A stretch of 63,619 bases of DNA, the filler included, from Collodictyon triciliatum (lineage: Eukaryota): the NCBI GenBank assembly GCA_043381765.1. It is 6 parts of 6 records of this genome, joined end to end, with 100 filler letters (N's around TTAATTAATTAA, not from the genome) between each part and the next. Parts side by side here need not be neighbours in the genome. Positions count along the whole stretch, not along the records: positions 19,153 to 38,196 come from JBHJMP010001313.1; 5 more parts are not named here. One strand, 5' to 3'. Below the pieces are notes generated by a model. That model saw only the letters and a list, made by a program, of their open reading frames with translations. It made no database searches and had not been told where the DNA came from. The position numbers and the translations under genes are program-made. Positions 3,084 to 47,685 of the stretch are shown piece by piece. Within the stretch, counting starts at the first letter, position 1. Each line of letters starts with the position of its first letter.

Positions 3084-6000
3084 ATGAACTCAAAACCAAC
3101 TCAGGCATGGGTTACTGAGGAGAAAACCAAAGCAAACAGAGGAACGCACCCAACACATATCAAGGTAACATCTCACCAATGCAGATGTTCCCTCTTGGAA
3201 GGACATGGAACTCTGGGCCCAATACATCCTTTCACCCAATAAAACCCACAATATTTTGAAAGTAGCCATATTTAACTATGCCTGCTTTAACCAAGAACAT
3301 CAATGTTTTACTGACAATTATCCATTACAAATTGTGCGAAGGTTGGAGCCTCTTCAAGTGAAACTCTTGGACTGAATTTCGAATACAAGAACCTTGTTTA
3401 CTCTGTCGACCAAAAGACTATCCTGAACGATGTCTCGGGTCGTGCATACCCAGGTTATTCCTGTCTTAAAATCGACGAAATAGGATGAAGGATTTTCGAT
3501 GCGAAATGATGAAAAGAACGAATAATCTATAAAAATAAAATGAAATAATAATACCACGGCGTGGTACAAGAATCATATAAAACTAAATAAAATTTCCTTT
3601 ATCACTTCTTCAATCCTATGCTACTATTTATCACCGCTTCCCAGGAATGCTTCTGGGTATCATGGGGCCAAGTGGTTTGTGCACTTGTATTGCAGGAACA
3701 TGATTTTTTTTTGGTTTCTTTTCAACAGTTTATTGAGAGAAAACAATTGCAGGAGCATGATATTGGATAGTGACACATGCTGATATAAATCATTTAATGA
3801 GTTTTTATTTATTAAAACCGATATTTATTGTTATCGTCATCTATCATATCGCAACATCCGTGGTGTCTAGGAGCCGGCAAAACCACACTGCTACACTGTC
3901 TATCCGGTATAATCAATACAACAAAAAACGAAAGAAGCAAAATTGATGATAAAAATATACCATTCGTATCACATTCCAGCTCAATGGGGAAAATCAAGCC
4001 TCGCAGAGTTCATCGCAAATCACATACGCCAGACGAAGTTTATACTATAATTGCTTCTCCTTTTAAAGCTGGTGCACCAGCAAATCATCTCTCTTCCTCA
4101 AGTTCATCATATTGCATCCAGGAAGACGCATGGCTGGTCAGCTACAGGGAGATGTTGCTGTCAATGCAAATCCAGTCAGCAAGGACCTGATGCAGGTATG
4201 GGCTTTTCCTTCTGGTTGATGATTCGAGGCATCGGGCCATAAGAGAACCCACCGCAATGCACAAGAACTGTAATGTTGGAATCAACAAACAAAACACGCT
4301 AACCTTTCATCATGCTAACGACCGACTTCTGGATACACCAGAGAATATCAGCGTTTGTGGAGCAAATGGACGTCCTGTTTGGGTCATCCGTAAGTACATC
4401 TGACACATCATGCAACAATACGGAAAGAGAGGAAAAGGGATGGTATAGTATAGGCAAAAAAGGGCAAAAGGAAGGGTTCGTGTGCTTACTGAGCACTCCT
4501 TTTCCTACGATAGACACCTCGAGAGGCACTTCTTTTTGCATCGAAACTACGACTGGACTCTAATATCAAGGACCAATATCTTCTCGAGCGTGTGGATAAC
4601 TTGATTGAAGAGCTCGGCCTGAGCAAATGCAAACACTCATTGATAGGGTAAGCTGAAGATTTTGGAGATACTGTGTAATGGCAACAGTTTGGTAGCCTTT
4701 AGCTTCTATTTTTGTTTTTGTTTTTGTTTTTGTTTTTGTTTTTGTTTTTGTTTTTGTTTTTGTTTTTGTTTTGTTTGTTTTTTGTTTGTTTTTTGTTTGT
4801 TTTTTGTTCTTTGTTTTTGTTTTTGTTTTTGTTTTTGTTTTTTGTTTTTGTTTTTGTTTTTGTTTTTGTTTTTTGTTTGTTTGTTTTTTATGTTTTGTTC
4901 TTTTTTTGTTCTTTTTTGTTCTTTTTTGTTCTTTTTTGTTCTTTTTTTTGTTTGTTGAGTGACCGTGATGTTTCTTCTGGTAGAGGACACATAGTATTAA
5001 TCACAAATTATTATTTGACGCTCAGATATATCGGGGAGGCGGCAAAGAATAGCGGACTAAAAAGAGGGCTTTCTGGGGGAGAGCGCAAACGTCTGTCGAT
5101 TGGGTTCGAGCTGATTACGGAGCCGCTACTGATTTTTCTTGACGAGCCGACAACAGGTGAGTCCTGTACAGAGAGGGCATGATATCTCAGATTGATGTAT
5201 AGCCAACGAGAACAATTCATAAAGCTCATATATACAATAAACCATGAACCATACATTGTAAATTATACGAAACAAAAAAAATGAATACAAGAACACTTAC
5301 CGACAAGCCACCATGTATGCCACTTCTGTGTGGAGATATAGATGTTCTATTATCCACTCCAAGCTTGTCGAATATCGAACATTCTCATGTGCCTTGCAAC
5401 CCCGCACCATGGGGATTCTTTACGTTACACATGACGCAAATAGAGATGCTGAGGTCTGGCCTTTCTTTTTTTAACAGGTCTGGACTCCTTCGCAGCAAAC
5501 AGTGTGATTCGTACACTCCGAAGGCTGGCGATACGACAGAACCGCACAGTCATCTTCACCATACACCAGGTAGGAATGGCAGACAAAAGAGCAACAACCA
5601 AACTACATACCAGGTCTATACAAGAGAACTCACCTATGTGCGAGTGTTTAAAGACACAGGGATTTGGAATGGGAGTTTGGACAAAGCCGCAGGGTTTTAC
5701 CCACGGAGAGTAAAAGTCGTTTTAGAGGTATTTGAAGATTTCTAACCAACGGTACACGCAGCCGTCCGATGAGATATTCGAGTTACTGGACTACGTGCAC
5801 ACACTAGCGCTGGGGAGAACAATCTATTTCGGAGCACGAGAGCATCTTGTGGGATACTTCCATGAGATTGGCCGACCGTGTCCACCCCTGTCCATCATTC
5901 CAGACCACTTGAGTAAGTCATCCACATCCACATCCACATGCGTGTGAGAAAGAGAACAAGGGAAGATGCGCCACTGCCACTCACTCTCCATGATGGATAT

Positions 6001-8458
6001 TTATCTAAAAGAACCTTAATATGGCGTTTAATCAGCGTTGTATATGGATTGACAAGCATCTATGCATTGATTTTTCAGTTGATATGATATTCGGAGATGA
6101 CCTGGAGAGAAACAAAGGCAGCTATCTTGAAATGGACCCCAACAAGCGAGACGTAGGCAGCTTTATTGAACAAGCTCGGCAACTCGCGATGGTAAGCCAG
6201 GCAGACAAATGATAACTCCATCATACTTGCCTTATTTTTTTCTTCGTAATTTTATAAATAAAACATGAATAATCGAACTGATGAGTGTATGCAACGGCCT
6301 CTACAGAAATACAAGGAGTCTAGTGTGTGGACAGAAATCGAGAAGAGACCGTCGCCAGAGTATACGGACTTGAGCATCACTAACGGGTGAATATCCTCGA
6401 GATGTTTATATGATGATACCGTTATGGATAATATGGATTGAGGGCAGTAGTATTGAGGCGTATAGAAGCACATAGATGATAGATAATCGGATGATATATT
6501 TTTCCAGCATGATGATATAAAAGTGAGGTTATGAAATAATAGGCGTCACGGTAAAGCGAGTTTTGCACGGCAGTTTCGAGTACTAAGCGAGCGAGCATGG
6601 AAGGACGCCATACGAGAACCGCGACAGGTTTAAGACAGAAAAGGGGTTTTTTTTTTTTTGTATGAAGATGTAAGCGGAACGGGAGGCATGCATATTTGGT
6701 AAATTGAATAGCAAAAGAAGGAAGCAAAACTCACTGGGAATACCACCACAGCTTCGCTCTTGGATTGGTCAAGCGATATTTATGGGACTTTTTCTGGGAT
6801 TAACATACTTCCAGCTAGACTACACTCAAGTTTGATTAAATGTGATAGATTTCTAATTAACAAATTGTCAAAATTATTTGCAGGATTTTTTTACAGAAAT
6901 GTCTATGTAGGAAACCTCGCAGTATTGCTTTATATATCTTACAGAACCCAATTGTTAGATAAATGTAGGGGACAGAATGGGATGTCTTTTTATGTGCATG
7001 ACACTGATGTTTATGACATCTTTCAATTCGCCTATCAATCTTTGTAAGTATATATATCTTTTCAAGGCTTAGGATGTTTTGAATGAAAGTATTTTTGCGC
7101 TTATAAGAAATACTCGACGATGTTAGTTCCTGCGGAACGGGCCATCTTCCTTCATGAGTTTCGACAAGGATTATATGACACTCTCCCCTATTTTCTCGCC
7201 AAGCTCAGCACCGAGGTCTCGAAAACACTTATTTAGTTTATATTTATTTATTCATTCAATTAGTTGTCATTTTTAAGTTCGAATTTTCCTTGAAGGCAGC
7301 ACAATTAGTTATTCGACCCTTGTTATATGCAATCACCGCTTATTGGTTGATTAATTTGAACCCTGAGGTATTATTTCCTTCTTGCTTAATTATTACCAAA
7401 GGCACTGTTTTTGTATTTTTCCTTTTATTCTGATATTTTGTACGTACCAATCTTAAGGATTAAAATTTACCGTGATGTGATAATTTTTTGACAGGGGTCC
7501 CGATTTGTTATTTTCGTCATTGTGATGTCTGCTGTTTCCTACTGTGTGTTTTCCCTTGGTAAGGTCCCAAAAGAAAAAGAAAAAGAACTTGGATAAATCT
7601 ACAATGGTTGTTGAAAATGGAACATTCCTTCCAACCTCGACTATTTGTAACAATTTTTTTGTAGCATTAGTGCTTGTTGCTTCAATTCAAGATGCGGCCA
7701 TAGTACTAGCTGTAATGCCGATCATCTTTATTCCATTTGTTGTAATTTCAGGCTTTTATGTGAATCTAGATTCGATGCCAGTGTTTATTTCATGGTAGGT
7801 ATCTTGTTTATATCGATAAAATGTTACATAAACTTTGCAGCAACCATCAGATAAATATGACTTAAAAATGTGTTGGTGAGAGCCTTTATGCTTTTCATAT
7901 TTAAATATTTTCTACATAGGATGCAGCACATCAGTTTCATCAAATATGGGTATAAAAACATAAATTTATGATAAATATGGTCTGATATTATTCTCATATC
8001 TTCGCTTCGAAGGAATTTATCCGAACTTTACATTTTTTTCAATTCCACAATCGCTATCTAACTGCATAAGATGTCCCCATGAGAGACTAGGAAGTATATT
8101 ACATTTTTTTTATTTATTAATTTTTTCTCTTTATTAACAGCTACCGAGCCATATTGAACAACGAGTTTCATGATATTCACATCAAATGCACTGAGGCGGA
8201 GCGAATTCTATACAATTGTGAGATATCCTTGTTACCTTTAGTACAAACGTATTTTCTTTTACTTGCAAGACCATCACACGCGTCCTAATTACCGATACAG
8301 GTGCATGTCCGTATCAAACAGGGGATGACGTTTTGTCCAGCCTTGGGATGAAAGGTCACCCTATCGGCCAAGACATTGTCACGATGATAGGCATCGGTGC
8401 TGTTTGTAGTTTCTCTGCCTTTTTCATTTTAAGGCACAAAGCACACAAAGAGATATGA
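3084..8458 (+). CDS. ABCG (White-family) half transporter, multi-exon
   Basis: Spliced product has [12 protein letters not shown], Walker A GIMGPSG|AGKTT, Q-loop [12 protein letters not shown], signature [13 protein letters not shown], Walker [15 protein letters not shown]-loop [10 protein letters not shown], then TM domain ([40 protein letters not shown]); stop TGA 8456-8458. Start ATG is tentative. Confidence 0.92.
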
Positions 8459-13109: not shown

Positions 13110-17549
<4,440 letters not shown>

Positions 17550-18506
17550 TTCGATTTTACTCTACCGGATGCGGAATAATGTGTATATAAAAATTATGAT
17601 ATTAATCACCATTATTATGATATATGAATCGGTAACATTTTTTTCAATGATTTGTATATTATCCCTCTAAAGCCAATCACCCTGTTATTCATGGTGACCG
17701 TCGTGTACTTTTGATGCTTTTGGAAATATTTCTCATCATGTATAATAAATTATAGTATGATAAAGAGGTACATTATGAGCTGCGTTGATCTTTGAAGGCT
17801 TCGTTAGACTCTGAAAAAATCATAAAGTAATTACCGATGGGAAATGATTTTTGTTGTATCCTATATTATCTCTTTCCTCGCCTCAGCTGTTGCTGCTGAG
17901 CTTCGGTTCAACAATTGGCTTAAATATCCTGACACAGTCCTGGGTTAGTGATTTATTGTTGAGATCATTCTCTCTGCAAAGGTAACACAGGCTACGGGGA
18001 ATATGCATCTACCTTTCACCATCCTGTGGCAGCTCTCGAAGTGNNNNNNNNNNNNNNNNNNNNNNNNNNNNNNNNNNNNNNNNNNNNNNNNNNNNNNNNN
18101 NNNNNNNNNNNNNNNNNNNNNNNNNNNNNNNNNNNNNNNNNNNNNNNNNNNNNNNNNNNNNNNNNNNNNNNNNNNNNNNNNNNNNNNNNNNNNNNNNNNN
18201 NNNNNNNNNNNNNNNNNNNNNNNNNNNNNNNNNNNNNNNNNNNNNNNNNNNNNNNNNNNNNNNNNNNNNNNNNNNNNNNNNNNNNNNNNNNNNNNNNNNN
18301 NNNNNNNNNNNNNNNNNNNNNNNNNNNNNNNNNNNNNNNNNNNNNNNNNNNNNNNNNNNNNNNNNNNNNNNNNNNNNNNNNNNNNNNNNNNNNNNNNNNN
18401 NNNNNNNNNNNNNNNNNNNNNNNNNNNNNNNNNNNNNNNNNNNNNNNNNNNNNNNNNNNNNNNNNNNNNNNNNNNNNNNNNNNNNNNNNNNNNNNNNNNN
18501 NNNGAA

Positions 18507-20256: not shown

Positions 20257-23200
20257 TCATGAATCAATTTCCAAGGCATCAAAGTTGCATTTATCCTCCA
20301 TCTCTTCAATTTTTTGCCGCCTACCAATTTTGATAATACTTTGCTTTATGTATTGTGAAAAATAATTATTTGTGACTATTTTGCACATGAAATGTAGGAC
20401 TGATAGTATTTTCCCAAAAAGCATGCGAAGAACAGCAGGGCCTGCTTTTGACAAGAAAAGAACGCCAATCATCGTATTGAGAGAGGCAACCATAATTAAT
20501 AGTATCATTTCAGCTGTATGACTTAAATCGCTGTAGCGAAACAATAAACTTGACATAAGAGTAAAGTAAAGAACGAAAAGAGATTGAATCTGAGATTTTT
20601 TCAATCCTCCATACATAAATGGCTTGAAATATATCGTTGATGCTATCATTAAAAACAATAACCACAGCCCAAAGTAAATCTGTAAGGATGTTGAAAAGAA
20701 TGCACTTATGAGAACTACGATAAGTTTTTGCATCATCATCACAACCTCCCAAAACTGGCACTTTTCTGTATACCCATCTACCAAAAACCTTAACAAGTTA
20801 TATGCTTTCGAAGATGTATCCCTTAAGCTTTTACTTTTTCTGACTATTGTCCCCAAAACCAATAGTGGGCTACCTAAACAGTAGCAAATGAAAAAAGTGA
20901 GGCATACATTTCTCCAAAAAACATATTGAGCATCATCACACATTACAGACATGTCAGCCTTCAAGTAAATTCCGTCTCCAAGAGTTTCGCATTGAAATAT
21001 GGTAGAAATGTTTGATGCTATAGAAGGATGGACAAAGAATAGGATGACCAACATCGAGTAAACAAGTTCCTCTAAAACCCGAGAGAAAGAAACGTCATTG
21101 CTTGAAATCATTCTCTTGTAAAACAACCACATTTTTTTCAGAGAAATAATAATTATTACTATGGCCATTAGTATAAGTGGTGTTAATATGGAGTAAAACA
21201 CTTTGTCATAAATGCTCATGTTAAATCTGCAATCCATTGGATAGCTGTCCACAGATAATGAGAAAGAAAATATTGCAGGAATTTTCAAAATTGAGATAAT
21301 GGTTGAATTCCATCGGACATCAAAATTGGCCAAATATGATAAAACTTGGTAGTGGGTGAGCAACGATTTAAGAACTTGAATATTTTCTGTTTTAGGTTGT
21401 CTTGATTGTTCTATCATAAAAAAGACAAATACCAGAGGAAGCACCACACTCAGGAAAACAAGAAAACCGTTTGCACTACTTGATGCACATTTGATACAAA
21501 AAGAACCTGTCTTTCCATATCCTTCCTCGCAAACACTACACAAAGCCCCGGTATAGCCTGATGCGCATGTATTGTTTCCTCCATGGCACGCATTTTCATT
21601 TAAACACTTGTAAGCCAAATATTTTCCATCTGAAGATGGGGCTTGCCAATAACCTGGGGCAACTATGGGCTGGCTACTCCCATCACAAAAAAACCCCTCA
21701 GGACAGTTTTCACAAAATTTTCTTTTAGAATCTAAATAAAAGGATGGGAGGCATATACAATCTTCTAGTGAAGACGATCCAGTAGTATTTGTATACGAAT
21801 TTTGAGGGCAGTCTTTACAAAGGGTGTTTCCGTAGATTTCCTTGTATGTGCTTGGAGAGCACTGGTAGCACATACCTTGTTTTTCGTACCAACCAGGCTG
21901 GCATTCGCATACATTGCTTATATTAACAAATCCAAGCTTACAGGCACAATCAGTAGGACTAATTGAACCATTATATTTTGTTGTGAGCCTCTCTGGGCAC
22001 GGCAAACATAAGTTTGTACTATTTTCTGATTTATATGAACCAAAACCACAAACATCACAGTGATTACCATCCTCAAACATCCCTGGAGAGCAAGTGCATA
22101 TCCGATTAAATAAAATATAGGTTTCCAAACACACACACTCATCAACATTTTGAGAGCCAGATCTTAATGTGGTTGAGCGTGCGGGACAAGCGTTACATGA
22201 AGCACTAGCAACTGGGCTGTAAGTGCCATTTGGACATGGTATACAAGCTGACTCATTAAAGGAGCCTTTTTTATTGTTATATGTTCCTGCCTTGCACGGT
22301 TCACATGAGGCTTGACCTTCTTTGATATTGTAAGTCCCTTTCGGGCACTCTATGCATGATTGGTTTCCGTGCGAGCCAAAGTTCGGATTATATTTTCCAC
22401 TCGGACAAGCTTGGCATGACCTTGAATCTTTTGGTACGCCTTCTTCTTGATAAAAGCCAGGCGCACACGATATGCACAAAGTACTTCCCTCAAAGCTGTA
22501 ACTACCACGGTCACATTTCCGACATAATGACGGGTCAGATATTCCGGATTGATTACTGTACGTTCCACTGGGGCATGCCATACAGATTGTTCTTTTCTGA
22601 TTTCCATAGGTTCCTGGGGGGCAGTTGGTACAGTTTTTTACATCAGTAGACCCATAAAAAGGATTGTAACTCCCCAAAGGACACAATTCGCATGCTATTT
22701 GCCCAATCCTTGAATTGTACTCCCCAGGGGGGCACATATCACAGGAGGATTTTTCCTTGACTTTCGATTTATACCCTACATCACAAGGTATGCAGCTGCT
22801 CATTGACACAGATGCAGTATTGGAGTTGAAGGTACCTGGAGGGCAATCGTCACAAAAGGTCGACCTAGTTCTGTTTGTAAAAGTACCCGGGTTACAAGGA
22901 GAGACGAATGACTCACCCCTATTACTAACATAATATCCTGCTTTGCTTGCAAGACATTCTGGCTGACCCTCGTTGCCGTTATACGTCCCAGGGTCGCATG
23001 GGATGCAAGAAGAATTCGAGGTCGACCAAAAATCTGGATTGTATGTTCCAGCAGGACACAGTTTGCAAAATTTCTGTCCAAAGGAATCAGAATATGACCC
23101 CGGAATGCAAGCTATACACGAACTATGCACAGAGGATGACTCTTTGCTGGGATTAAATGCTCCAGGAGGGCAGTTTTTACATAATGATTGCCCAGAAAAT

Positions 23201-26200
23201 GGATTGTAGGTTCCAAAATCGCAAGGGATACAGTCGGTGCTTGAGCAGGAGCCCTTTTTTGGATTATGAGTACCAGGTGGGCATTTAGTGCATGCGTACA
23301 GATAATTCACATTGTGATATGTTCCTGAAGGACATGGTTGACATTTTTTGGATAGCACATCATAAAAGAATCCTAGGTGGCATAAGTTGGTCCATATTTT
23401 GACTGTGGTATCATCACTACCTGATATAATAGTTGAGCCATCAGAAATGTATACTACACTGGAAACAGGGCCACTGTGTCCTGTCAACACACGCACTAAA
23501 GAACCGTCTGATATGTTCCAAATTCTGATAGAATAGTCATCACAAGCAGACGCAATTTTTTGACCATCGGCACTTGCAGTGATACTTAAAACATTTAATT
23601 GCGCATCTATCACTTGTTCCAAAGAGCCATTCGATAGACTCCAAATTTGAATTTTTCTGTCCCCGCCTGAAGATATTATTTCTAAAGGATTGGTTGCGGA
23701 GGCGATGATATAGTTCACATTAGCTTTGGTGTCTATCACCCTGACTTGAGTTCCATCGGAAACCCTCCATATTCTAATGGAATAATCCTTACTTCCAGAG
23801 GCGATATGTAGACCATCGGATGTGATAAGAACACAATGAACCTGAGATGTATGTCCCCTCATTATATGAATCGGCATTCCATACTTGAAATTCCAAAGAA
23901 TAACTGTTCCATCATAGCTCGATGATGCAATATTTGACCCGTCTGGAGAAACAGCTACACCTGAAACTATCCCGTTATGGCCATCAAGTTTCCTAACCAA
24001 GGCACCACTCTGCAAATCCCATATGTAAACGAAGCGATCAAAATGGCCAGATACTATGTTTATGTTGTTGGGGGCTGCTGCGATGCTTACAACGTCACCT
24101 GCATATCCTGTAAATGTTTGTACCGATTTACCATCTGAATATCTCCGTACATAAATGATTTTATCCTGACCAATACCTCCTGATACGATTTTTGTGCCAT
24201 CAGGGGTAACAGCAATGCACTGAATTGTGGTTTTATCTCCTGTCAACGTACGAATAGAAATGTCTTCGGGTAGGTTCCATACTTTGATGCTATTGTCTTG
24301 GCTGCTGGTAATAATGTTAAGGTCATCAGGTGTTATAAGTAAACTGTTTATCAATTTAGTGTGCCCACTCAACGAGCGAATGAGTTTGAATTCTGAAGAG
24401 CTCCATACATGAATCGTATTATCACCTCCTGAAATGATTTTTGATCCGTCATATGAAAACGCAAGGCCATTAACCCAATCAGTATGAGCAGAAACTTTCT
24501 GAACCAAAGTACCTTCATTGATATTCCAAATATAGATGTCAAAAGATGTTCCTGAGGCGACTTTTAGGTCATCAGGTGAAATAGCTACACTCACCACTTT
24601 TTTGGTGTGGCCATCCAATGTGCGAATCACCTGTGCACTATTAATATTCCAAATACGGATGACAGAGTCAGAAACAACTGTATCAGATCCGCCCGCAGAT
24701 ACAATTATTGAACTGTTTTGGTTAACAGCTAGAGCAAGGACATGATCAGTATGATTGATTAATGTGTGGATTAAAGTACCATCTGTCATATTCCAAACTT
24801 TGATAGTCGTGTCCATGCTTCCAGAGACAAGTTTTAACCCATCAGGAGTGACTGCAAGTGTGTCTACCCAATCTGAATGCCCAACCAAAACCTTTTCTAG
24901 AACTCCAGTATTAGAATCCCACATCCTTATTGTGTAGTCAAAACTGCCAGAGATGATTTTGGATCCATCTATGCTTACAACAACAGACCTTACGAAATCT
25001 GTGTGCCCAGACAAGGAACGAAGTAAATATCCACTGGAGAGGTCCCATATCTTTATCGTTTTATCAGAGCTTGCAGAAAATATCGTCGGCTCTTGACTAG
25101 ACACAGCCACACTGTTTACTGTACTTGAGTGGCCGTAAAAAGCATCGATTAAGCTCCCATCTAAAAATTGCCATATCTTAACTGAATAGTCACTCCCCCC
25201 TGAAACTATGTTTGAGCCATCTGGGGTCAAAGCAAGAGAATTGATACTACAAAAATAATCATCGATTATAATGCGAAAGAGCTCTCCATCCAATGCTCTC
25301 TGAATGAATATTCTACCTGTAGCATCACCAGATAAAATAAAGGTGCCATCAGGAGTCACTGCCAGACTCAATATGCGACTTCTGTGGCCAATCATGTTGC
25401 GAATGAGAGCCCCTGTATCAACGTCCCAAATTTTGACCATCATATCACCTCCTCCAGATATAAGCATCGAGCTGTTCGAATGGGTTATGACAGCTGTGAC
25501 ATTATTCAAATGACCAACAAGTGTTTTCATTAGTTTTCCATCAGAAATACTCCAAATTTTGATGGTTCCGTCTCCACTTCCTGATGAGAATTTTAAACCG
25601 TCAGGGAAGACAGAAACGCTATAAACAGACTCATTGTGGCCGTATAGTCTATGAATTAGAGTCCCATTTGAAAAATCCCACACTAATAGAGCTGCTTTGT
25701 CGTCCCCTGAAATAATTTTTGAGCCATCTGGGGTGAGAGCTAGTGCTTTAATTCTTCCTAAATGTCCAATAAGAGACCTTGTCACTGCTCCAGTGCTGAG
25801 GTTCCAAATTTTAATGGTTTTGTCATCACCTCCAGAAACAACTCTCGTCCCATCTGGGGTAACTGATACACTATTAATATCCCCCTGATGCCCGGTGTAT
25901 GATCTAATATGAGAACCATCAGAGAGGTTCCAGATTTTGGCTTCAAAGTCTCCAGCAGAAATTATTTTCCACCCTCTTGCGTCCAGAGATATTTCTTCAA
26001 CACCACCACTATACCAATTCCAGGTGCGAATAAGACATCCGTCTTTTAAATCCCACAATCTCATAGACCTATCAAGACTACCAGAGATAAATCTTGACCC
26101 GTCTGGAGAAACAGCAACACTTGTTACGCCGTCAATATGAAGTCCAAAAGTATACAGGGGAGTACCATCATAAATATTCCAAACTTTGACGGTTGTGTCG

Positions 26201-27058
26201 TTGCTCCCAGAAATAATCTTCAGCCCATCAGGGGTGATTGAAACACTACTTATTGAATCCGAGTGACCTGTCAGAGAAAGTAAGAGTTTTCCATCATGTA
26301 AATTCCAAATTTTCAGGGTGCTATCGCAGCCACCAGATATGATTTTAAACCCATCAGGCGAAACCATTAACGACTTGATGCACCCAGTATGTTCTGTCAG
26401 ATTTTTCAATAAATGCCCATCGGACATTCTCCAGATCTTGATGATTTTATCATCACCACCCGAGATAATTTTCAAACCATCAGGCGTGGTTGAAATGGTT
26501 CTAACCGCTGCATCATGACCATTTAACGTACTGATCAATTTTCCATTATAATAGTCCCAAATTCTAATGCTATTCTCTTGACCTCCAGAAATTATTTTTG
26601 ATCCATCGTTCGTGAATAGAATGCATAATACGGCATCGGAGGCGTTTATTGTTTGTAGCAATAGCCCATCTGAAAGATTCCTTACTGATATCACCCCATC
26701 TCCATCTCCAGATACCATCTTTAAACCATCTGGAGCGACGGCAATACAATGAATTTGTTTAAAGTGTCCGTTAAATATTCGAATCAAGCTTCCAGTCGAT
26801 GTATTCCACATTTTTATCACATCGCCATCCGCAGTGAGGATTGACGAACCATCAGATGAGAAAACAATACTTTGAATATCTTTTGGGCCCGTTATAGTGT
26901 TGATGGAGTCGTCAAGGCCCACCGCAATCTTGATTGAGCAAATTAAAAGAAATCCTGCTACAAAATCAGTATTATAAACTGTTTTAATTTTATTTATTTT
27001 TTTAGAAATAGGGCATACCTAATCCTATGGTGAGAAAATTTGTGAGGCTTCTTCCCAT
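20257..27058 (-). CDS. ~2,250-aa predicted cell-surface protein: signal peptide, ~28 WD40 repeats, GCC2/GCC3 (ephrin-receptor-like) Cys-rich repeats, ~9 TM helices
   Basis: ORF 20257-26922 extended by exon 27019-27058 across GT..AG intron 26958-27018, giving MGRSLTNFLTIGLAGFLLICSIKIAVG-LDD; repeats GHxxxVxSVAxTPDGxxIxSGSxDxTIKIW; repeats CxxCPxGTY; C-terminal hydrophobic helices with YTEKCQFWE and FKPF motifs. Confidence 0.9.
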
Positions 27059-29678: not shown

Positions 29679-31392
29679 TTAAAAGATATTTATGTGACAG
29701 TCGCTCCAGTTGGCCACAACCAATCGACCATCCGAGAGGAAAGACCCACCTTCGGCACCGCGGCATGGTACACTTTTAACTAAACTTCCTTCTCTCGAAA
29801 AAATGCTAAATGACCCAGCCCCAAAATCTGTCAACAAAACACCACCGCCAGGTCCGCGTGACATGAAGTTAGCATTGCCACTAAGTTCTTTGATTGTGAC
29901 AGACCTGATAAATACCCCGCTCGTTTGGTGGAAGTACATGTTTGATCCGGACATGGGGACGATAACAACTTCATTGGCATCATTCACGGTGATTCCATAT
30001 GGCCGAATATTTGTTGTGGCTGTAGGTTCCACATCACCAAGTTGGAACTCGAGAACAAACTCACCTGTTGGTGAAAACTTCTTGACTCTGTTATTATCTC
30101 GATCGCTCACGTAAAAGTATCCCTGCTGATCCGAAGTGATATGGCGAGGCTCTCTGAATTCGTTAGACTGTGAACTTTTACCATTAATCTCCTTCATAAG
30201 CACCCACTCAGAGGAGAACAAAAGCACTCGGGACTTTGAGCAATCTACAACACCTATTGTCCCAAATATGTTTACATTTATACCACGGGGCTCCGAAAAC
30301 TTTCCATGAGGCGTTGCCTTACTTTCGTAAATCTCATAAAAACTTAAATCGCTATTCAACACCTGTATGCGAGAGTTTTTCTGGTCAACAATATATATTC
30401 TGTCAGTCATCGGGTGGACAGCTACGCCATCAGGAGCATTGAAGAGAAGTGGTCCATCACTGCCACTTTTTCCGACGGTAAGCACATTCGATCCGATGGT
30501 TGATACGTCACGGTAGATGGGACGGAACCCCACAAAGAAGGCTGGTTTTTTAAGTTCTGAGGCGGGATTTATTAATTACAACGAGAATTCAAGAGGAAAA
30601 GCGAAAAAATAATTGATACCAAGAAATCAAGATGATTCAGAGCGTGTATAGAATATGTATTTCATTTGACACAATGGTGAAAGGAGAATCAAAAAAAACC
30701 TTCAGATAGTTTTGATGTGGCGGATATGCAAAAGGGATTCGGTATATGAATAGTTCCTGGGAACGGTTCCTTGTTTAGGCTGGGACATGCCACGGACATG
30801 TGCTCTCTTGCAATCGATGCGATGGTATTTGGAGATTTTTGCTTGAATGTTTCGTGAAGTAGCTCTTTTTCCATGCGAAGGAGAGTATTCAATGTCGCTT
30901 TGAAACTTGCTTCATCTAGGGCTATGTCTTTTAACTGGCTGCTTCGGTGGCCCTTGGCCTATTTTTCAGGGAGACTATCACCACAGTGGATGAAAACGAA
31001 TGTGATGGTATTTGGATGTATCCGACAGCTTTAGTTATGTGTGGCCACATTAATAGAGACATGTATTGTTATGAATGTATTTATATGCATGTTTGTACAC
31101 ACGGCATCCTTTAGCTGCTCGCGGTGGGCTGCTAGAGAGAGCTTCAGGGCATCGAAATGACTGGCAAAAGACGTGTCCATTGATTCAAAAGCGCCTTCAG
31201 TCTGCGCCAGGTGTTGGCATTTTTTGTGTGGTGATTATGGCAAAATAAAAGAGAGGAAAAAACACAACTAATAAGATAACATTAGAAAAAGAAGAAAGAA
31301 ATACCGAGAAAGGGCCATACCCGAGCCATAAGATCACTGGAGTTTGACAAACGGGCCTCGATCAGAGAAAGAAAAGCTCTCGATTCTTCCAT
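29679..31392 (-). CDS. Coiled-coil plus NHL-repeat beta-propeller protein (TRIM-NHL-like, no RING or B-box seen)
   Basis: Four exons: MEESRAFLSLIEAR..., TEGAFESMD..., AKGHRSSQLK..., last exon with NHL repeats (FNAPDGVAVHP..IYIVDQKNSRIQV, FSEPRGINV, FREPRHITSDQQGYFYVSDRDNNRVKKFSPTGEF). Confidence 0.85.
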
Positions 31393-31547
31393 GCAGTACA
31401 ACTATTCGCTTCGCCTGTGTCTGTGAGAAAACAAAAGTTTGGACGGTGAACAAAGAACACATACGAAGCAGAATAACAGGACGCGTAGTGAGTTCAAAAC
31501 AAAGACAAATCCAAGACGGAGACAGGCACGAGAACAAAAAGTGAATC

Positions 31548-31619
31548 TGAGCCCTACGTGAATCGAACACGCAACCTTATGATCTGGAGTCACACGCTCT
31601 ACCATTGAGCTAAGGGCCC
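31548..31619 (-). tRNA. trnW: tRNA-Trp (anticodon CCA), 72 nt, intronless
   Basis: GGGCCCT TA GCTC AATGGTA GAGC G TGTGA CTCCAGA TCATA AGGTT GCGTG TTCGATT CACGT AGGGCTC A folds as a cloverleaf; T5 pol III terminator just downstream. Confidence 0.96.
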
Positions 31620-31799
31620 ACTCTTGGTATTCTGAAGAAATTTGACATACTTAATATACATAATCAGTTTTAGTTTATTTTTTTTCGTTTTTCTTCGTTT
31701 TTATCTTTTGGCTTTCTCTTTTTCGTTTTCCCTTTATTAATAATTCCTTGACTAGGGTCGCAGCCAAGAACAACGTATACGCAACAGCAAATCGAATTA

Positions 31800-34411
31800 T
31801 CAAGCGCCCTGGGGCCCATCAGGCATAGGAGACAAGGGAAATGATTCTTCCATGGCCATGATTTCGTCCAAGTATGCGTTGATTGGAGTATCTGGTGGTG
31901 AAGCCTCGTCAATCTCCAGGTGAGGTGGATGTGTGCGTAGTTTCAACTCAGCAAAATCAACCGAGATTTTTTCATTCCCAATTGAATATTCATCAGGAAT
32001 ATCGTCATCTTTTAAAACTATTGATTCTCTTCCAATCCCTTCACCAGCAACTAGGTGCCCATCATTTTCCTGAAAAGCATGTGACCTATGGTTCTGCTCA
32101 GACTCATTTATTAAACTTGAGTTCTCGGCTGATTTCGTATATGCAGTTCTGGTTTGCTTTTGAGGGCTATTATGAGGGCTTTCTTCACTATCGTAAACAT
32201 CTGCCGAGTCATTTGCAAAATCTCTTGTAATTACACGGCCTGATAGCTTAGCGTTTAACCAATTATCTTGAAATTTTCCTGGCTCGCGAGTATCCCCAGG
32301 TGATAGCCGCTCTGTGAATTCGGTCGCTCTCGGCTGCTGTGTTTTTTCTTTACCTATAAAGATATATACCGTGTATACCATTTAATGAACGGCTTCATCG
32401 CATTTAACATATTACATGGAGTCTTTAGATCTTCACGTTTTCTTCATTTCCTGCTCTTCGCTTCTGGGACTAATATTAAAAAAAAAAAAAAAAAGGAATT
32501 CAAACATATTGCATACTCTATTTTAAACGAAATGATTAGAATTGAAGTACCTAGCTTTCTGGATTCCGTGGAGGATAACTCGTTCTCGTGGTATTCTTTA
32601 TCACTAATTACATTGGTGTGGTTGTGTGTTTTCATTATGGGGAGATGCGGCAATGAATTTGAGTTTTCGGAGTTGAAAGAGCGGCCAGATTTTGGTGAGT
32701 CTTCCTCAATTAATTCATGATTTTTATTCTGATTACTGAAGTCAAGTTTTGAGTAAGATCCAAATATCTGCAGATCTTTTCCTTCATTCACTTTTCTGGA
32801 TTGATTAAAGCGTTCAGATGCTGGTCTTGATTGAAGATTGACACTTTGCAGTTCTTTTTCATCTTCAGCTACTTTCGTGGATTGATTGGAACGTTCAGAC
32901 GCTGGTCTTGATTGAGCATCGACACTTTGCAGTTCTTTTCCATCTTCAGCTACTTTCGTGGATTGATTAGAACGTTGAGACGCCGGTCTTGATTGAGCAT
33001 CGACACTTTGCAGTTCTTTTCCTTCATTCACTTTTCTGGATTGATTAGAACGCTCAGACGCTGGTCTTGATTGAGCATCGACACTTTGCAGTTCTTTTCC
33101 ATCTCCAACTGCTTTTCTGGATTGATTAGAACGTTGAGACGCCGGTCTTGATTGAGCATCGACACTTTGCAGTTCTTTTTCATCTTCAGCTACTTTCGTG
33201 GATTGATAAGAACGCTCAGACGCTGGTCTTGATTGAGCATCGCCACTTTGCAGTTCTTTTCCATCTTCAGCTACTTTCGTGGATTGATTAGAACGTTGAG
33301 ACGCTGGTCTTGATTGAGCATCGCCACTTTGTAACTCATTTCCGTCCTCAATCACTTTTCTGGATTGATTGGAACGTTCAGACGCTGGTCTTAATTGAGC
33401 ATCGACACTTTGCAGTTCTTTTCCTTCATTCACTTTTCTGGATTGATTAGAGCGCTCAGACGCTGGTCTTGATTGAGCATCGACACTTTGCAGTTCTTTT
33501 CCTTTCATTACTTTCAAGCCATCCAAGGCAGAAATTTGAGACCTGGGCGTAGAGTCTTTTATAGTTTCCGGATTCAACATCGAAACAAGTTTGGTCGGGT
33601 CATGCTCTCTGCGAAGTGAAATAATTCCACCGTTTTCTTTATATTTTTTTGTATCTGCTGATCTCGAACTATTTTCCGATTCGAGTGAAGATTGCATTTC
33701 AGATTTTACTCGAATTCTTGCGCTTTCATGAGTATTGCCTAATATTTCTTTAGGGTCTTCGGCCTGAGCTGAATTCAACCTGTGACAGTAACTGAGAGAG
33801 GCACCATTGGGTCCCTCATGGGTTTCGGTGATAGAGTTCTCTAGCCTTTGAGTAGATTGTCTGATAGAATTTTGAGACACATATATCTGTGATGATTGCT
33901 CGCTACGAACATCAGAGATTGCCGAAGAATAAAACGAATTGGGAGAATGAACAACAGCTGCGGTATCCAAGGGATATTGCGGGGAAATATTGTGTAATGC
34001 AAGTCGAGGCACGATGGTTTGTTCCGTATTCTCAACATCATGCATATCGTCATTAGTTGCCTTTTTATCGACTCTAGAGGGTGTGTTGCTAGGTGGGTTT
34101 GATGATGGATGTGCATTGACTCTGTGAATCGCTGAGAATGCCGCCAGTGCACTTTCGATAGAAGGATATGCCACAGACACATCCATGAGAGTCATATCAC
34201 TGCTCCACGTGGTTTTCTTGGTTTGTTCGCTTGCTTGAACACGAGATTTCTCTTTAGCCGATGTGTTTGAAGTTGTAGGCTTGGGTCCGATTGGAGCGGT
34301 ATGAAACTGTCGACGGAATTCCTGGAACTTGGAGCGGGCATCGGACATGAGGACCTCTGCTCGGTCTGCTCGGGTCTGGATGGCATCGCGCAAGGGGCTA
34401 TGCGTGGACAT
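31800..34411 (-). CDS. Low-complexity protein of unknown function with internal 28-29-aa tandem repeats
   Basis: ORF 32444-34411 joined to ORF 31800-32381 by GT..AG intron 32354-32550 (RKLG|KEKTQQP); repeat unit KELQSVDAQSRPASERSNQSRKVNEG. Confidence 0.75.
32770..33510 (-). repeat. Coding minisatellite, 84/87-bp unit, about 8-9 copies
   Basis: Near-identical units ...GCTGGTCTTGATTGAGCATCGACACTTTGCAGTTCTTTT... on the plus strand. Confidence 0.9.
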
Positions 34412-35347
34412 TCCAGTGCGAATGATTTTCTAGTTTTCTTGATAGTATAAGATATCTGAAGTCTCGTTTGTTTTTTGTTTTTTTGTTTTTTGTTTGTTTG
34501 TTTGTTTGTTTGTTTGTTTGTTTGTTTGTTTGTTTGTTTGTTTGTTTGTTTGTTTGTTTGTTTGTTTGTTTGTTTGNNNNNNNNNNNNNNNNNNNNNNNN
34601 NNNNNNNNNNNNNNNNNNNNNNNNNNNNNNNNNNNNNNNNNNNNNNNNNNNNNNNNNNNNNNNNNNNNNNNNNNNNNNNNNNNNNNNNNNNNNNNNNNNN
34701 NNNNNNNNNNNNNNNNNNNNNNNNNNNNNNNNNNNNNNNNNNNNNNNNNNNNNNNNNNNNNNNNNNNNNNNNNNNNNNNNNNNNNNNNNNNNNNNNNNNN
34801 NNNNNNNNNNNNNNNNNNNNNNNNNNNNNNNNNNNNNNNNNNNNNNNNNNNNNNNNNNNNNNNNNNNNNNNNNNNNNNNNNNNNNNNNNNNNNNNNNNNN
34901 NNNNNNNNNNNNNNNNNNNNNNNNNNNNNNNNNNNNNNNNNNNNNNNNNNNNNNNNNNNNNNNNNNNNNNNNNNNNNNNNNNNNNNNNNNNNNNNNNNNN
35001 NNNNNNNNNNNNNNNNNNNNNNNNNNNNNNNNNNNNNTTTTTGTTTTTTGTTTTTTGTTTTTTGTTTTTTGTTTTTTGTTTTTTGTTTTTTGTTTTTTGT
35101 TTTTTGTTTTTAATTATGGTGAATCGGCAATAGAAATATGATTCGCAACCACTTCAGACAGATGTGGAAAATATAATTTCCTGAAATCTCGGCAGCCGAG
35201 GCAACTCTACAGAAATAATCTCGACACAACAATCAAAAAGCCGGTTGGAAGCGCCACAGACGCGGCTTCACTGCTTTCCCACAGAGAAAAGAAGGAGTCG
35301 ACTTTTTTTCATTGACACTGCACCATTCAAGAGGAGGCCAGTAGGCT

Positions 35348-37600
35348 ATGGCTAATCGAACGGATCCGTCTGCAAAAACTGTGCACGGCACAAATCCACA
35401 GAACTTAGTGGAGAAGATTTTGAGGAGCCGAATCTACGGATCGCGCTACTGGAAAGAACACTGCTTCGCCCTCACAGGTGATCCAAGTCCCTTAGAACCT
35501 GTCTTTTAGCAATACTATGTGTATTTATTCACCCTTCAATTGGATAGAAATATGCGAAAAGTAAAATAAAATTGACTAGTCTTCACTTGTATTGCTGTTA
35601 CATTTGTGATCATGTCCATTTTCACTCCATTTTCACTCTATTTCCACTCTATTTTCACTCTATTTTCATTCTGATTACATTCTGCAATAGCGGAGACATT
35701 GGTTGATAAGGCTGTGGAGTTGCGTGCTGTTGGTGGCTCGTTTGGTGGCACACAACAACCCACAAAATTTATTTGTCTGATTCTGAAGCTTCTTCAGCTG
35801 CAGCCTGATAAAGAGATTATCATTGAGTTTATTCGTAATGAGGACTACAAGTGACTCTTCATACCGATTGTCTTGTCCCCCTTTTTTTTTTGTAGTTAGT
35901 TTGAAGGCACTCGTACAAAGTTTTGACTAAAATCTACATAGGTACGTTCGCGCTTTGGGAGTGTTCTACATGCGCTTAGTAGGAAGGGCCCAGGATGTCT
36001 ATCAGTATCTGGAGCCATACTACAGTGATTATCGCAAGCTTTGCTATCGAGAGGCCCAAGGCATGACTTGGCATTTGAATGTTTTCTCATTTTCTTTTCT
36101 TTCTTTTCTTTCTTTTCTTTCTTTTCTTTCTTTTCTTTCTTTTCTTTCTTTTCTTTCTTTTCTTTCTTTTCTTTCTTTTCTTTCTTTTCTTTCTTTACTC
36201 TGTACCTGAGGTGATGAAAGACAAAGGAACACGATTATTTCAATAGGTTTCAAACTCGTACACATGGATGAATTCATCGAGAAACTCCTTAAGGAAGAAA
36301 TGGTGTGTGATATAATCCTCCCCAGAATTTCAAGCCGTTCCCTGCTTCAGACTCAAGGTCTCCTTGAAAATCGCGTTAGTTTGCTTGATAGCGACCTCGA
36401 TAATGACTTAGAGGAGAGTGAAAGTGAAAGCAGCTCTGAAGAAGAGAGACCCAGATCTCGCCATGTATGCATTTCATCTTTGGCAACTCTACAGAATTCT
36501 ATCCATCATTTTTCTTTCAGGATTTGCATCTTTCCTTCTACTTTCTTCTTTTTATGAGATCATATTTCCTTCCACCAAACATGGGAAATGGTTCGCAATG
36601 GCTCATGCTGAAAATTTTATACTGAGATGTTAATCAACTCGAAGTAGATTTCATCTTGCTTCCAGATTACAATTGAAAAAATCCTAATATAATGTTTGTC
36701 TAATAGGAACGCAGTAGCCGCGATGCTGAATCCAGTCAAAAAGGTATTTAGTTCATCAATGTAGAACATGTTTTTCCCTTGACATAATTTATGATTTTGC
36801 CAGTATTTCCTCTGTGCGACACGCCGGAAGAAGACTCGACAATGTTTTACTTTGTGTGAAGAAGAGAGGCCGAGCCTGTCCATCTTTTACTATACTCATG
36901 TTTGCTACATTTTAGAAAAAGAAAAAGACCGAGATAGGGCCAAGGACAGAGACAGAGAAAAAGAAAGAGACAGAGACAGAGACAGAGACAGAGACAGAGA
37001 TATAGATAGGGATAGGGGTAGAGATAGAGGTAGAGATAGAGGTAGAGAAAGGGACAGAGAAAGGGACAGAGAAAGGGACAGAGAAAAGGATAGAGAAAGG
37101 GACAGAGAAAGGGAAAGAGAAAGGGACAGAGAAAAGGATAGAGAAAGGGATAGAGAAAAGGATAGAGAAAGGGATAGGGACAGGGAAAGAGAAAGAGGCA
37201 GAGATAAGGATAGGGAAAGAGAAAAAGATAAGGATAGAGGCAGAGATAAGGACAGGGAAAAAGAAAAAGATAAGGATAGAGGCAGAGATAAGGACAGAGA
37301 CAGAGAAAAAGACCGCGGAAGCAAAGGAAAAGAAGACAAAGGTAACCATAGAGCATGTCATCATTTTTTGCCATCATTTTTTTTATTATCTTCCTTTCTT
37401 TCGTAGCACGTCATGCGATGAGCCCTCTCTGTTGGCATACTTTTGTTTTTATATAATTATAATTATGAATATTGGATAAATGATTGTGCAAAGGAAAATC
37501 AAAGGCTGCGGCTGACTCCGGAAAGTCCAAAGATGAGCTTGAAATCGAAGAGGCCAACAAGCTTCGTGCGTCTCTGGGACTCAAACCCCTTCGTGCATGA
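35348..37600 (+). CDS. PRP38: Pre-mRNA splicing factor PRP38 (PRPF38A-type) with RD/RE-rich tail and C-terminal HIND motif
   Basis: [51 protein letters not shown]...[12 protein letters not shown]...[12 protein letters not shown]...[10 protein letters not shown]; 7 exons; ends [19 protein letters not shown]. Confidence 0.95.
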
Positions 37601-38196: not shown

Positions 38197-39485
38197 NNNN
38201 NNNNNNNNNNNNNNNNNNNNNNNNNNNNNNNNNNNNNNNNTTAATTAATTAANNNNNNNNNNNNNNNNNNNNNNNNNNNNNNNNNNNNNNNNNNNNTTTA
38301 TTGTCTTTTTTTTATTGTCTTTTTTTTATTGTCTTTTTTTATTGTCTTTTTTTATTGTCTTTTTTTATTGTCTTTTTTATTGTCTTTTTTTATGTAGGTG
38401 GACTGAGAACACACACGGCATTCACGCAAGGCGCTGATGGAGGGATCTGCAGAAGCGGAGGAAAAGACAAAGACTAATCCCGGAGGGGAATTCCTAAATG
38501 AACAATTTCTGTTGTGACCAAAGGTGGACGAAGATTCAATGAAAATAATAAATGTGGATTATATATGTAATGTTCATATATGTAATATATAGTTATGAAA
38601 TTTATTATTTAAAACTATATCATTAATAAAATAATGATGTGAAAATGACAAGTACTTCGAAAGATTTCATTATAATATCTGTGGAAATTATAGTAAATTA
38701 ACTTTTCTAATCATTAATATGATTTTTTACTGCTGTTATATGCATATTCAAATTATGTAGGAAATTAATATGTACTGAGAATATGTATAGTTCTGTGGCG
38801 AAATGTAATTTTTGTGTCCAGCTCTCGCAGCCCAAAGTATCATAATTTCTGAACTTCGTGGGAGACGCAACAAACAAACGCAATTTTCCTCGCCAGCCGC
38901 AACTTGCCCAAGGAGCGTCATTTCCTTATTGGCAGTTCGTGCACAACCCATTCCAAAACTGGATTCGTGAATAAGAATTCAAACATTTGAAACATGCACG
39001 CAGCATTTGAAAATGAAACAAGCAAAGACAAGCACAACCCGAAGGAATCGAAGAATCGTTATTTCCGCGCTGGTTTGTTATTGATTAATACGCCCAAATG
39101 GGGTGTCGAAAGCGAACGTGTGGAACAGATCGAAATTGCCGAAAATCGCCACAACCAGACACAGGCACAGACACAACAAAGAAAAGCATTGGGTGCTCCC
39201 GTGTATAAAGCAACTGGCCACGAAAAATCGATTCAAGAAAGCCAGCCAAGGAATTGTTACCAGGGCTGAGAATTGCCGTGCCGAGTCCAAACAATTCAAT
39301 AGAAGAAATGTACAGCACAAAGCAAAACGTGAATTAGTCATCCCCGTTCGCTGGAGATGGGTCTTGTCACTTCAGGGCATTCACGCATACCTACCACTTT
39401 GTTCGCTGCACACTTTGTGTGCTTTCTTCCCAAGCCTCCCTTTGAACTGCATCGCTTGGGGATCATTTTTATGTGGCATAACTTT

Positions 39486-39704
39486 GACTTTTTCCCGCGA
39501 CTTTTTCCCGCGACTTTTCCTCACGACTTTTCCTCACGACTTTTCCTCACGACTTTTCCTCACGACTTTTCCTCACGACTTTTCCTCACGACTTTTCCTC
39601 ACGACTTTTCCCCGCAACTTTTCCTCACGACTTTTCCTCACGACTTTTCCTCACGACTTTTCCTCACGACTTTTCCCCGCGACTTTTCCTCACGACTTTT
39701 CCGC
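39486..39704. repeat. 13-bp minisatellite (GACTTTTCCTCAC)n, about 17 copies, immediately upstream of the GMD start
   Basis: Directly visible; variant units GACTTTT(T/C)CCCGC; ends ~30 bp before ATG 39735. Confidence 0.95.
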
Positions 39705-39734
39705 TGTAGTGTCACCTTGCAAGTCACCATAAAT

Positions 39735-42344
<2,610 letters not shown>

Positions 42345-42620
42345 GCGCACAAGTAAACAAAGCTTTTTGTTCATTTCCCCACTACCGGCCAATCGAACCA
42401 CAAGCGGCCCGTTATTGCGGATGAACAGGAAAACACGAGTCAATAATAATCACTGTGGGCGGCGATTCCACCAGTTTATTATCATTTTTTTTTAATAAAA
42501 GAAGAAAAAGAGGAAAAGAAATGACAATTCTTAGCGTGTGGAGTTTCGTGTATCCGAGTGGAGAGTGAGAGAGCAGAAGGAGGAGGGTGACTCGTATAGT
42601 AGGAAAGGAGGAGACACGCG

Positions 42621-47685
<5,065 letters not shown>

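Follow-up and report, generated by a model that had tools for sequence, protein, structure and literature searches.

The Flc/Pkd2 family of transmembrane (TM) proteins and the propeller-bearing surface proteins of plants provide the background for the giant gene of Collodictyon triciliatum reported here. Fission-yeast Pkd2 is described as comprising a signal peptide, an extracellular immunoglobulin (Ig)-like domain, nine TM helices, and a cytoplasmic tail (10.1101/2022.08.11.503631), and the reconstituted protein is reported to let calcium through on membrane stretch (PMC9727806). The ectodomain of the plant receptor kinase CRINKLY4 is described as a seven-bladed propeller, referred to by its authors as WD40, followed by a TNFR-like cysteine-rich domain, and this propeller is reported to be closest in structure to UVR8 and BLIP-II and to contain one disulfide per blade (10.1101/2020.08.10.245050). 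Furthermore, Arabidopsis GEX3 is described as possessing a signal peptide and an extracellular seven-bladed propeller and as functioning in gamete adhesion (PMC13589550). The gene in question lies on the minus strand at 20257-27058 of a 63,619-nucleotide (nt) stretch of assembly GCA_043381765.1, which is referred to as the window in its entirety, and is predicted to encode a protein in which a signal-like N-terminus is followed by an array of 28 WD40 repeats, a cysteine-rich stalk, and a nine-helix TM module. The locus is probably best explained as encoding a giant N-out/C-in protein with a WD40 head, a stalk, and a nine-helix module, which by analogy may serve in channel-coupled sensing. Within this explanation, the architecture together with an outward-facing WD40 array is highly probable, and channel-coupled sensing, which is drawn from analogy, is doubtful.

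The anatomy of the protein, the family membership of each of its parts, and the logic of its topology have been established in silico. A large minus-strand open reading frame (ORF) at 20257..26922 runs uninterrupted for 2221 aa, and this one 6.7-kb ORF spans the WD40 array, the stalk, and the TM module without a break; the gene is nearly intronless, with a main exon of 6.7 kb. The sequence-only reading of the locus, in which this architecture was first observed and is hereby confirmed, had proposed a 40-nt first exon outside the ORF track, and a matching exon is predicted: a start codon at 27058, the 40-nt exon, and a 61-nt GT-AG intron would join in frame with the main exon, resulting in 6741 nt, i.e., 2246 aa and a stop codon. 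The predicted exon 1 (27019..27058, minus strand) begins with the ATG, holds 13 codons and one further base, is joined in frame by its sequence, and codes for the n-region and the first half of a signal-peptide-like hydrophobic core. Its ATG is preceded by A at -3 and followed by G at +4, as judged by eye. The predicted intron (26958..27018, minus strand) is AT-rich with a T-rich tract before the acceptor, and its start is the sole GT donor ahead of the in-frame TAA of exon 1; without splicing, the exon-1 frame ends after 18 codons. The frame of the large ORF is open back to a TAG at 27021-27019, and its first ATG corresponds to Met38 of the ORF (by eye). Candidate acceptors for introns of 40, 61, and 64 nt all preserve the frame, and the hydrophobic core is unbroken with the 61- or 64-nt intron only (both by eye). 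Two introns of PRP38 elsewhere in the window are ~214 and ~90 nt long and of the GT-AG type (by eye); the 61-nt intron is short for the window, yet plausible, and we infer the splicing of exon 1 from this predicted arrangement.

An artefactual or non-functional fusion, whether as a pseudogene, through a join made in assembly, or as an ORF that is not expressed, is hardly credible. The assembly is a draft with 14 N gaps and the same architecture was not found elsewhere among the best-ranked matches, as would be expected of an artefact; however, an open frame of 2,221 codons would not last without selection, not a single N gap lies inside 20257-27058, and the junction between WD40 array and stalk is in frame within unique sequence.

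The WD40 array covers spliced residues 28-1202 (23392..26916, minus strand) and was identified by Pfam, a profile built from the gene's own repeats, AlphaFold2, and Foldseek. Delimitation of the repeats together with the own profile results in exactly 28 repeats, in agreement with the earlier estimate of ~28 over ~1,170 aa, and WD40 (PF00400) is matched in Pfam in 23 stretches with an E-value of 1.2e-194. Modeled with AlphaFold2 from the 16 sequences of alignment A2, the array is all-β, with a predicted local distance difference test score (pLDDT) of 80.0 and a predicted template-modeling score (pTM) of 0.41. In the PDB, Foldseek ranks the "highly repetitive propeller" 2ymu_A first for the array (E 5e-52, 33% identity); next come Pwp2, Utp proteins, Apaf-1, and Aip1 with their tandem WD40 propellers. 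Four seven-bladed propellers are an arithmetic reading only (28 = 4 × 7); neither lag-7 periodicity nor neighbor similarity is present among the 28 repeats, and the 4 × 7 split therefore cannot be backed by propeller-level duplication. Identity between repeats averages 34% with a maximum of 60%, and the repeats, judged from their sequences, are old and anciently diverged. Many N-x-S/T sequons had also been claimed. The protein contains 31, including 16 in the WD40 region, where shuffles that keep the composition (n = 2000) give an expectation of 10.5 ± 2.8 and reach 16 in 88 cases; the abundance of sequons stands, and their enrichment in the WD40 region is real but modest. A sequon is located at the start of 6 of the 28 repeats. 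By regular expression, a sequon follows the repeat end in 4/24 cases in this array versus 41/1179 in 61 relatives matching only the array (WD-only relatives; Fisher p 0.0105), and the density of 1.36 sequons per 100 aa in the array is higher than in every one of these 61 proteins (maximum 0.92).

The array is followed by a cysteine-rich stalk of ~636 aa (spliced residues 1203-1838; 21484..23391, minus strand; Pfam), to which the ~600 aa of CxxCPxGTY repeats noticed previously correspond. Ephrin_rec_like (PF07699) is matched in 12 stretches with an E-value of 1.9e-83 and 274.5 bits against a cut-off of 23.1, TNFR-like and NCD3G-like matches are secondary, and spliced residues 1203-1830 contain 70 cysteines. 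A DUF7630-like knot (21487-21579, minus strand) adjoins the membrane before the first TM helix, and DUF7630 (PF24633) scores 25.6 bits at this expected position, just under the cut-off of 27 (E 1.4e-5). The TM module comprises spliced residues 1840-2186 (20440..21480, minus strand; AlphaFold2), and the protein ends in a cytosolic C-terminal helical tail of 60 aa with 9 lysine or arginine (K/R) residues, followed by the stop codon at 20257-20259 (together 20257..20439, minus strand; AlphaFold2 and loop table). In the AlphaFold2 model of the C-terminal 442 aa (pLDDT 84.9, pTM 0.80), the TM module consists of nine long helices, as had been estimated, an extracellular β-hairpin, and a long C-terminal helix. 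Cysteines C199 and C216 of the hairpin are invariant in 24 aligned relatives (alignment A1), and DUF7630 is matched by 9 of the 24 aligned relatives.

To collect relatives of the TM module, the last 442 aa were compared exhaustively by phmmer with 1.84 billion representatives. At E ≤ 1e-3, 5,614 relatives were obtained; the number falls to 1,388 at E ≤ 1e-10 and to 39 at E ≤ 1e-30. The best relative is a 293-aa fragment with 50% identity, and the best full-length relatives are ~32% identical, with E-values down to 2.9e-56. The following comparisons draw on the best 150 of the 5,614, of which 56, picked by rank and by size up to ~2,850 aa, were scanned with Pfam. Two relatives, P0010 (E 6.7e-45 to the TM module) and P0023 (E 2.4e-36), also pass PF06011, with 38.8 and 42.0 bits, respectively, against 28.5, and PF06011 is matched by 2 of the first 18 scanned relatives and by 4 of the 24 members of alignment A1. 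The Atlas neighbors of the TM module, at 0.93-0.94, are clusters labeled DUF7630, "TRP C-terminal", and Ephrin_rec_like, and the viral structure library BFVD contains a fold match to the model, a protein from Megaviridae annotated as a "transient receptor potential ion channel" (E 4.8e-5, TM-scores 0.50/0.53). The TM module is distantly tied, via such intermediates, to the Flc/Pkd2 "TRP-like" family of PF06011. Of the scaffolds proposed by the sequence-only reading, the channel-like one is retained, with Flc/Pkd2 as the best match found through the PF06011 intermediates and the BFVD fold, and a TRP or GPCR fold is not: Foldseek against the PDB returned no match of the TM module at E ≤ 0.001, with a best query-normalised TM-score of 0.19, and the profile of alignment A1 found nothing below E 0.9 among PDB sequences. 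Because neither search gave a significant match, the canonical six-TM TRP/polycystin and 7TM GPCR folds were rejected for the TM module.

The family is found in ciliates, chromerids, and dinoflagellates according to a profile search of longer proteins, and in algae, sponges, cnidarians, and giant viruses according to Atlas labels. One Atlas cluster of the family is labeled as commonest in Nucleocytoviricota, and three environmental Megaviridae entries of BFVD (A0A5J6VHI1, A0A5J6VI06, and A0A5J6VLW6) possess the nine-helix fold with TM-scores of 0.39-0.56.

The orientation of the array follows from its position between the N-terminus and the TM module. Once the exons are joined, spliced residues 4-32 form a hydrophobic segment with a hydropathy peak of 2.26, which is the only strongly hydrophobic stretch before residue 1835, and the signal-peptide-like N-terminus ascribed earlier to exon 1 thus agrees with the hydropathy of the predicted protein. 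The start of exon 2 (spliced residues 14-27; 26917..26957, minus strand) supplies the rest of the hydrophobic core and its small-residue A-x-G end; a putative cleavage site follows residue 27, with a basic n-region and small residues at -3/-1, as judged by eye on the predicted splice. The N-termini of the relatives were screened crudely for a strongly hydrophobic 10-residue window in the first 40 residues: of the 150 relatives listed, 109 begin with M and have the TM module >300 residues downstream of their first residue, and 48 of these 109 contain such a window; many of the 48 N-termini are textbook signal peptides. No TM-grade hydrophobic segment occurs between residue 32 and residue 1835, and the WD40 array and the 70-cysteine stalk consequently lie on one side of the membrane, as the sequence-only reading had it, including the order of the domains. 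The loops assigned to the inside contain 11 K/R in 49 aa (with the 9 K/R of the tail in addition), and the loops assigned to the outside contain 4 K/R in 65 aa, 3 cysteines, and 2 sequons; on the modeled helices, the positive-inside rule would fit an N-out/C-in topology. Since no segment separates the array from the disulfide-rich stalk, the positive-inside rule agrees, and many of the relatives carry putative signal peptides, an extracellular or lumenal position is the most likely one for the WD40 array. The sequons of the WD40 region favor this side as well, albeit weakly.

The inverse arrangement, in which exon 1 is unused, translation begins at the first internal Met, and a signal-anchor role of the first TM helix keeps both WD40 array and stalk cytosolic, is very improbable. 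The 61-nt intron is indeed shorter than the PRP38 introns (~90 and ~214 nt), and the WD blades resemble ordinary cytosolic ones without blade disulfides. By contrast, an inverted topology would place the 70 cysteines of the Ephrin_rec_like stalk in the cytosol and reverse the K/R bias (11 versus 4), the hydrophobic core just upstream of the first usable start of the ORF would be due to chance, and many of the relatives possess putative N-terminal signal peptides.

The position of the WD40 array is occupied by other modules in the relatives. Among the heads of the first 18 scanned relatives are TIG (12), RCC1 (4), FG-GAP (3), and PQQ (1), and further LRR, DOMON, filamin, and a GEX2-like Ig domain; the next 38 contain RCC1 (4), Kelch (1), PQQ (2), and a lactonase-type propeller (1). 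Propeller heads of other types are thus found in 16 of the 56 scanned relatives, and RCC1 and Kelch, which are other intracellular-type propellers, are routine heads in the TM-module family, whereas PF00400 is found in none of the 56. Searches for the same architecture, which cover the best-ranked matches, gave corresponding results. With the profile from the gene's 28 repeats, 61 of the other fetched proteins match WD40, and none of the 272 combines WD40 with the stalk or TM module. A search across the WD40/stalk junction listed 120 proteins, 61 WD-only and 59 stalk-only, and none with both. A profile search of longer proteins gave 12 matches, including Ichthyophthirius, Chromera, and a Symbiodinium gene model, none with WD40; a word-indexed search for proteins of near length, made with the TM region, yielded just two weak matches; an Atlas query over the junction was counted as blank, since it brought up nothing but WD40 clusters below 0.9; and when the window was searched by tblastn with the three modules, no paralog appeared beyond the giant gene. 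In full-text literature searches, no description was found of an architecture of WD40, Ephrin_rec_like, and TM helices, or of the family with cysteine stalk and nine helices. Whether the architecture had already been catalogued is accordingly answered in two parts: the base is known, with RCC1, Kelch, PQQ, and FG-GAP heads, but the WD40 head was not found among the best-ranked matches. The base architecture, a cysteine stalk and TM module with swappable heads, is a large catalogued family that is uncharacterised, and the WD40 head is the only part that looks new. The giant relatives P0005-P0153 share with the C. triciliatum protein the homologous TM module, a DUF7630-like juxtamembrane knot, the cysteine stalk, predicted signal peptides, and giant size, and differ in their heads, which are TIG, RCC1, FG-GAP, PQQ, Kelch, lactonase-type, LRR, DOMON, or filamin rather than WD40.

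One further protein, P0250 (1993 aa), has a WD40 array, PF00520 (Ion_trans) in its Pfam list, and four hydrophobic segments C-terminal to the array, and joins WD40 to a channel-type membrane domain by a different route.

The WD40 array itself can be compared with those of the NACHT-WD40/HET-E-type NLRs. HET-E-type proteins possess near-identical, highly similar WD40 repeats with hypervariable sites, and their diversification is driven by concerted evolution. The sequence-only reading had assumed that an intracellular array of this type was moved outside, and had described WD40 repeats of this style as normally cytosolic. These NLRs and the C. triciliatum protein both carry long consensus-like arrays, with 35-38% identity to the fungal members; however, no NACHT or effector domain was matched in the C. 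triciliatum protein, its repeats are not near-identical, and its predicted location is outside the cytosol. A head of the fast-diversifying HET-E/NLR type for recognition of self and non-self, prey, or pathogens is improbable, and a recognition role of this kind is purely speculative. In its favor are the consensus-type repeats, a protein named HET-E-1 with 37% identity, and the most variable repeat columns, located after GH and around the D-x-T motif, which we take to be the top, ligand-binding face. NACHT is not matched among the best 25 of 54 Pfam families shown, and the array starts at residue 28, directly after the signal-like segment. Furthermore, the low identity of the repeats (mean 34%, maximum 60%), the lack of lag-7 or neighbor similarity, and the lack of DNA-level repeats, with no DNA-level tandem repeats found in the giant gene, leave no sign of concerted evolution, and paralogs are absent from the window. 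The transfer of a HET-E/NACHT-type array to the outside is accordingly not supported.

As regards the style of the repeats, their consensus-like appearance and resemblance to NACHT-WD40 proteins hold, but always-cytosolic is too strong a description. The WD-only relatives show 23-39% identity over long alignments with no clear closest one; a hydrophobic segment is present in 17 of the 61, and in four (P0161, P0197, P0219, and P0247) a signal- or anchor-like segment lies directly ahead of the array. On the basis of these four, exported WD40 arrays probably already exist in bacteria. Such relatives, e.g., P0247 from a Pirellulales bacterium, resemble the giant protein in having the array behind a signal- or anchor-like segment and differ from it in having neither a cysteine stalk nor a multi-pass module; their identity is 23-33% over long alignments, and their export is predicted by a crude hydropathy screen. 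As for the plant propeller proteins, CRINKLY4 receptor kinases resemble the giant protein in the sequence of a propeller and a cysteine-rich domain in the ectodomain. They have one propeller, a single-pass TM segment, and a kinase, whereas in the giant protein a nine-helix module is combined with 28 canonical PF00400 repeats that lack blade disulfides. GEX3 is described with a single propeller and a single-pass anchor, and its likeness to the giant protein is one of description only.

With these comparisons, a mechanism may be outlined. A cleavable signal peptide would take the N-terminus into the secretory pathway, and the 28 WD40 repeats, probably folded into several tandem propellers, would form a large, multivalent binding head that is extracellular or lumenal. 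The rigid, disulfide-rich Ephrin_rec_like stalk of ~636 aa would hold the head off the membrane, and the DUF7630-like knot and the conserved outside hairpin would couple the stalk to the nine-helix module. Ligand binding or a mechanical pull on the head could then change the permeability of the nine-helix module to cations (Ca2+) or lead to signaling via the tail, by analogy with Pkd2. As described, Flc/Pkd2 proteins resemble the predicted giant protein in their signal peptide, outside domain, nine-TM module of ~400 aa, and cytosolic tail with a helix. They carry a small Ig-like lipid-binding domain where the giant protein has ~1,800 aa of WD40 array and stalk; the ectodomain is fully covered by WD40 and cysteine repeats, with no room for such a domain. 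The sequence identity between the two is very low, and their homology is transitive via P0010 and P0023. We infer surface exposure and all function. In its most specific form, in which approximately four canonical PF00400 propellers, glycosylated and without blade disulfides, would serve as the extracellular ligand- or force-sensing head of an Flc/Pkd2-like channel-receptor, the proposal is tentative.

The main rival shares this topology and differs in function: the protein would belong passively to the surface coat or serve in adhesion, with the WD40 head and stalk as a glycocalyx or as an adhesin toward other cells or a substrate, and the nine-helix module as a mere anchor or trafficking unit that passes no ions. 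Such a role is rather unlikely. It is favored by the adhesive character of the modules carried by the relatives, i.e., TIG (12/18), filamin, LRR, FG-GAP, and the GEX2-like Ig domain, by the plant protein GEX3, whose extracellular propeller is reported to serve in adhesion (PMC13589550), and by the TM module itself, in which no pore or selectivity motif was identified. However, a conserved nine-helix module of 400 aa with invariant residues, present in thousands of proteins, exceeds the needs of an anchor, and the nearest studied relative is described as part of a stretch-activated calcium pathway (PMC9727806).

Several observations weigh against channel-coupled sensing through an outward-facing WD40 head. 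The 28 blades contain nine cysteines in total, at buried-type positions and with no conserved pair, and the blades appear from their sequences to be without extracellular adaptation such as per-blade disulfides. The composition-controlled excess of sequons is weak, the observed count being matched by 88 of 2000 shuffles. As to the membrane module, the TM module of the giant protein has no direct match to PF06011 at E ≤ 1, the DUF7630 match is just short of the cut-off, and the channel activity of the nine-helix family, to which the analogy appeals, would rest on one fungal protein. Finally, neither orthologs nor paralogs of this architecture turned up among the best-ranked matches.

The remainder of the window contains ordinary, intron-rich genes with short exons, namely PRP38 (35348-36554, plus strand), GDP-mannose 4,6-dehydratase (39333-42421, plus strand), pieces of an ABCG-type transporter (4703-7795, plus strand, and 14595-14945, minus strand), and an EMC3/TMCO1-like piece (43450-43755, minus strand). 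At a distance of 2.6 kb upstream, the giant gene is preceded on its own strand by an ORF of 298 aa with NHL repeats, another propeller type (29682-30575, minus strand; E 5.2e-14). A tRNA-Trp (CCA) at 31547-31620 (minus strand, 66.7 bits) is the sole Rfam family found in the window. An ORF of 661 aa at 32447-34429 (minus strand) has no Pfam match and contains, at 32769-33502, a tandem array of approximately nine units, each of 81 nt (27 aa) and rich in S, Q, R, and E. Furthermore, an open frame of 1018 aa at 54158-57211 (plus strand) encodes an extremely acidic repeat protein rich in E, T, A, and K with no Pfam match; long ORFs on the opposite strand cover the same region, which fits its biased composition (GC skew 0.19, AT skew 0.36). 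The window has 14 runs of N with 1,451 N in total, e.g., at 18044-18503 and 34577-35037. Perfect GTTT and TTTTTGT arrays at 34466-35111 flank an N gap, and another perfect microsatellite, TTTCTTTTC x 11.8, is located at 36091-36196 within a PRP38 intron.

The surprise of the present architecture is moderate: extracellular propellers are common and heads are swapped freely in this family, yet an ectodomain of 28 WD40 repeats is unusual. If the splice or the topology fails, the protein would simply be a large WD40 membrane protein of unknown role. If surface exposure is true, the known range of the WD40 fold would widen, and the head, being easy to model and engineer, would lend itself to tests of the coupling between binding and the TM module. 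With 5,614 representatives, the TM-module family ranks among the larger receptor-like families of eukaryotes that are still uncharacterised, and of it only the fungal Flc/Pkd2 branch has been studied, and its modular head position accepts even canonical WD40 arrays.

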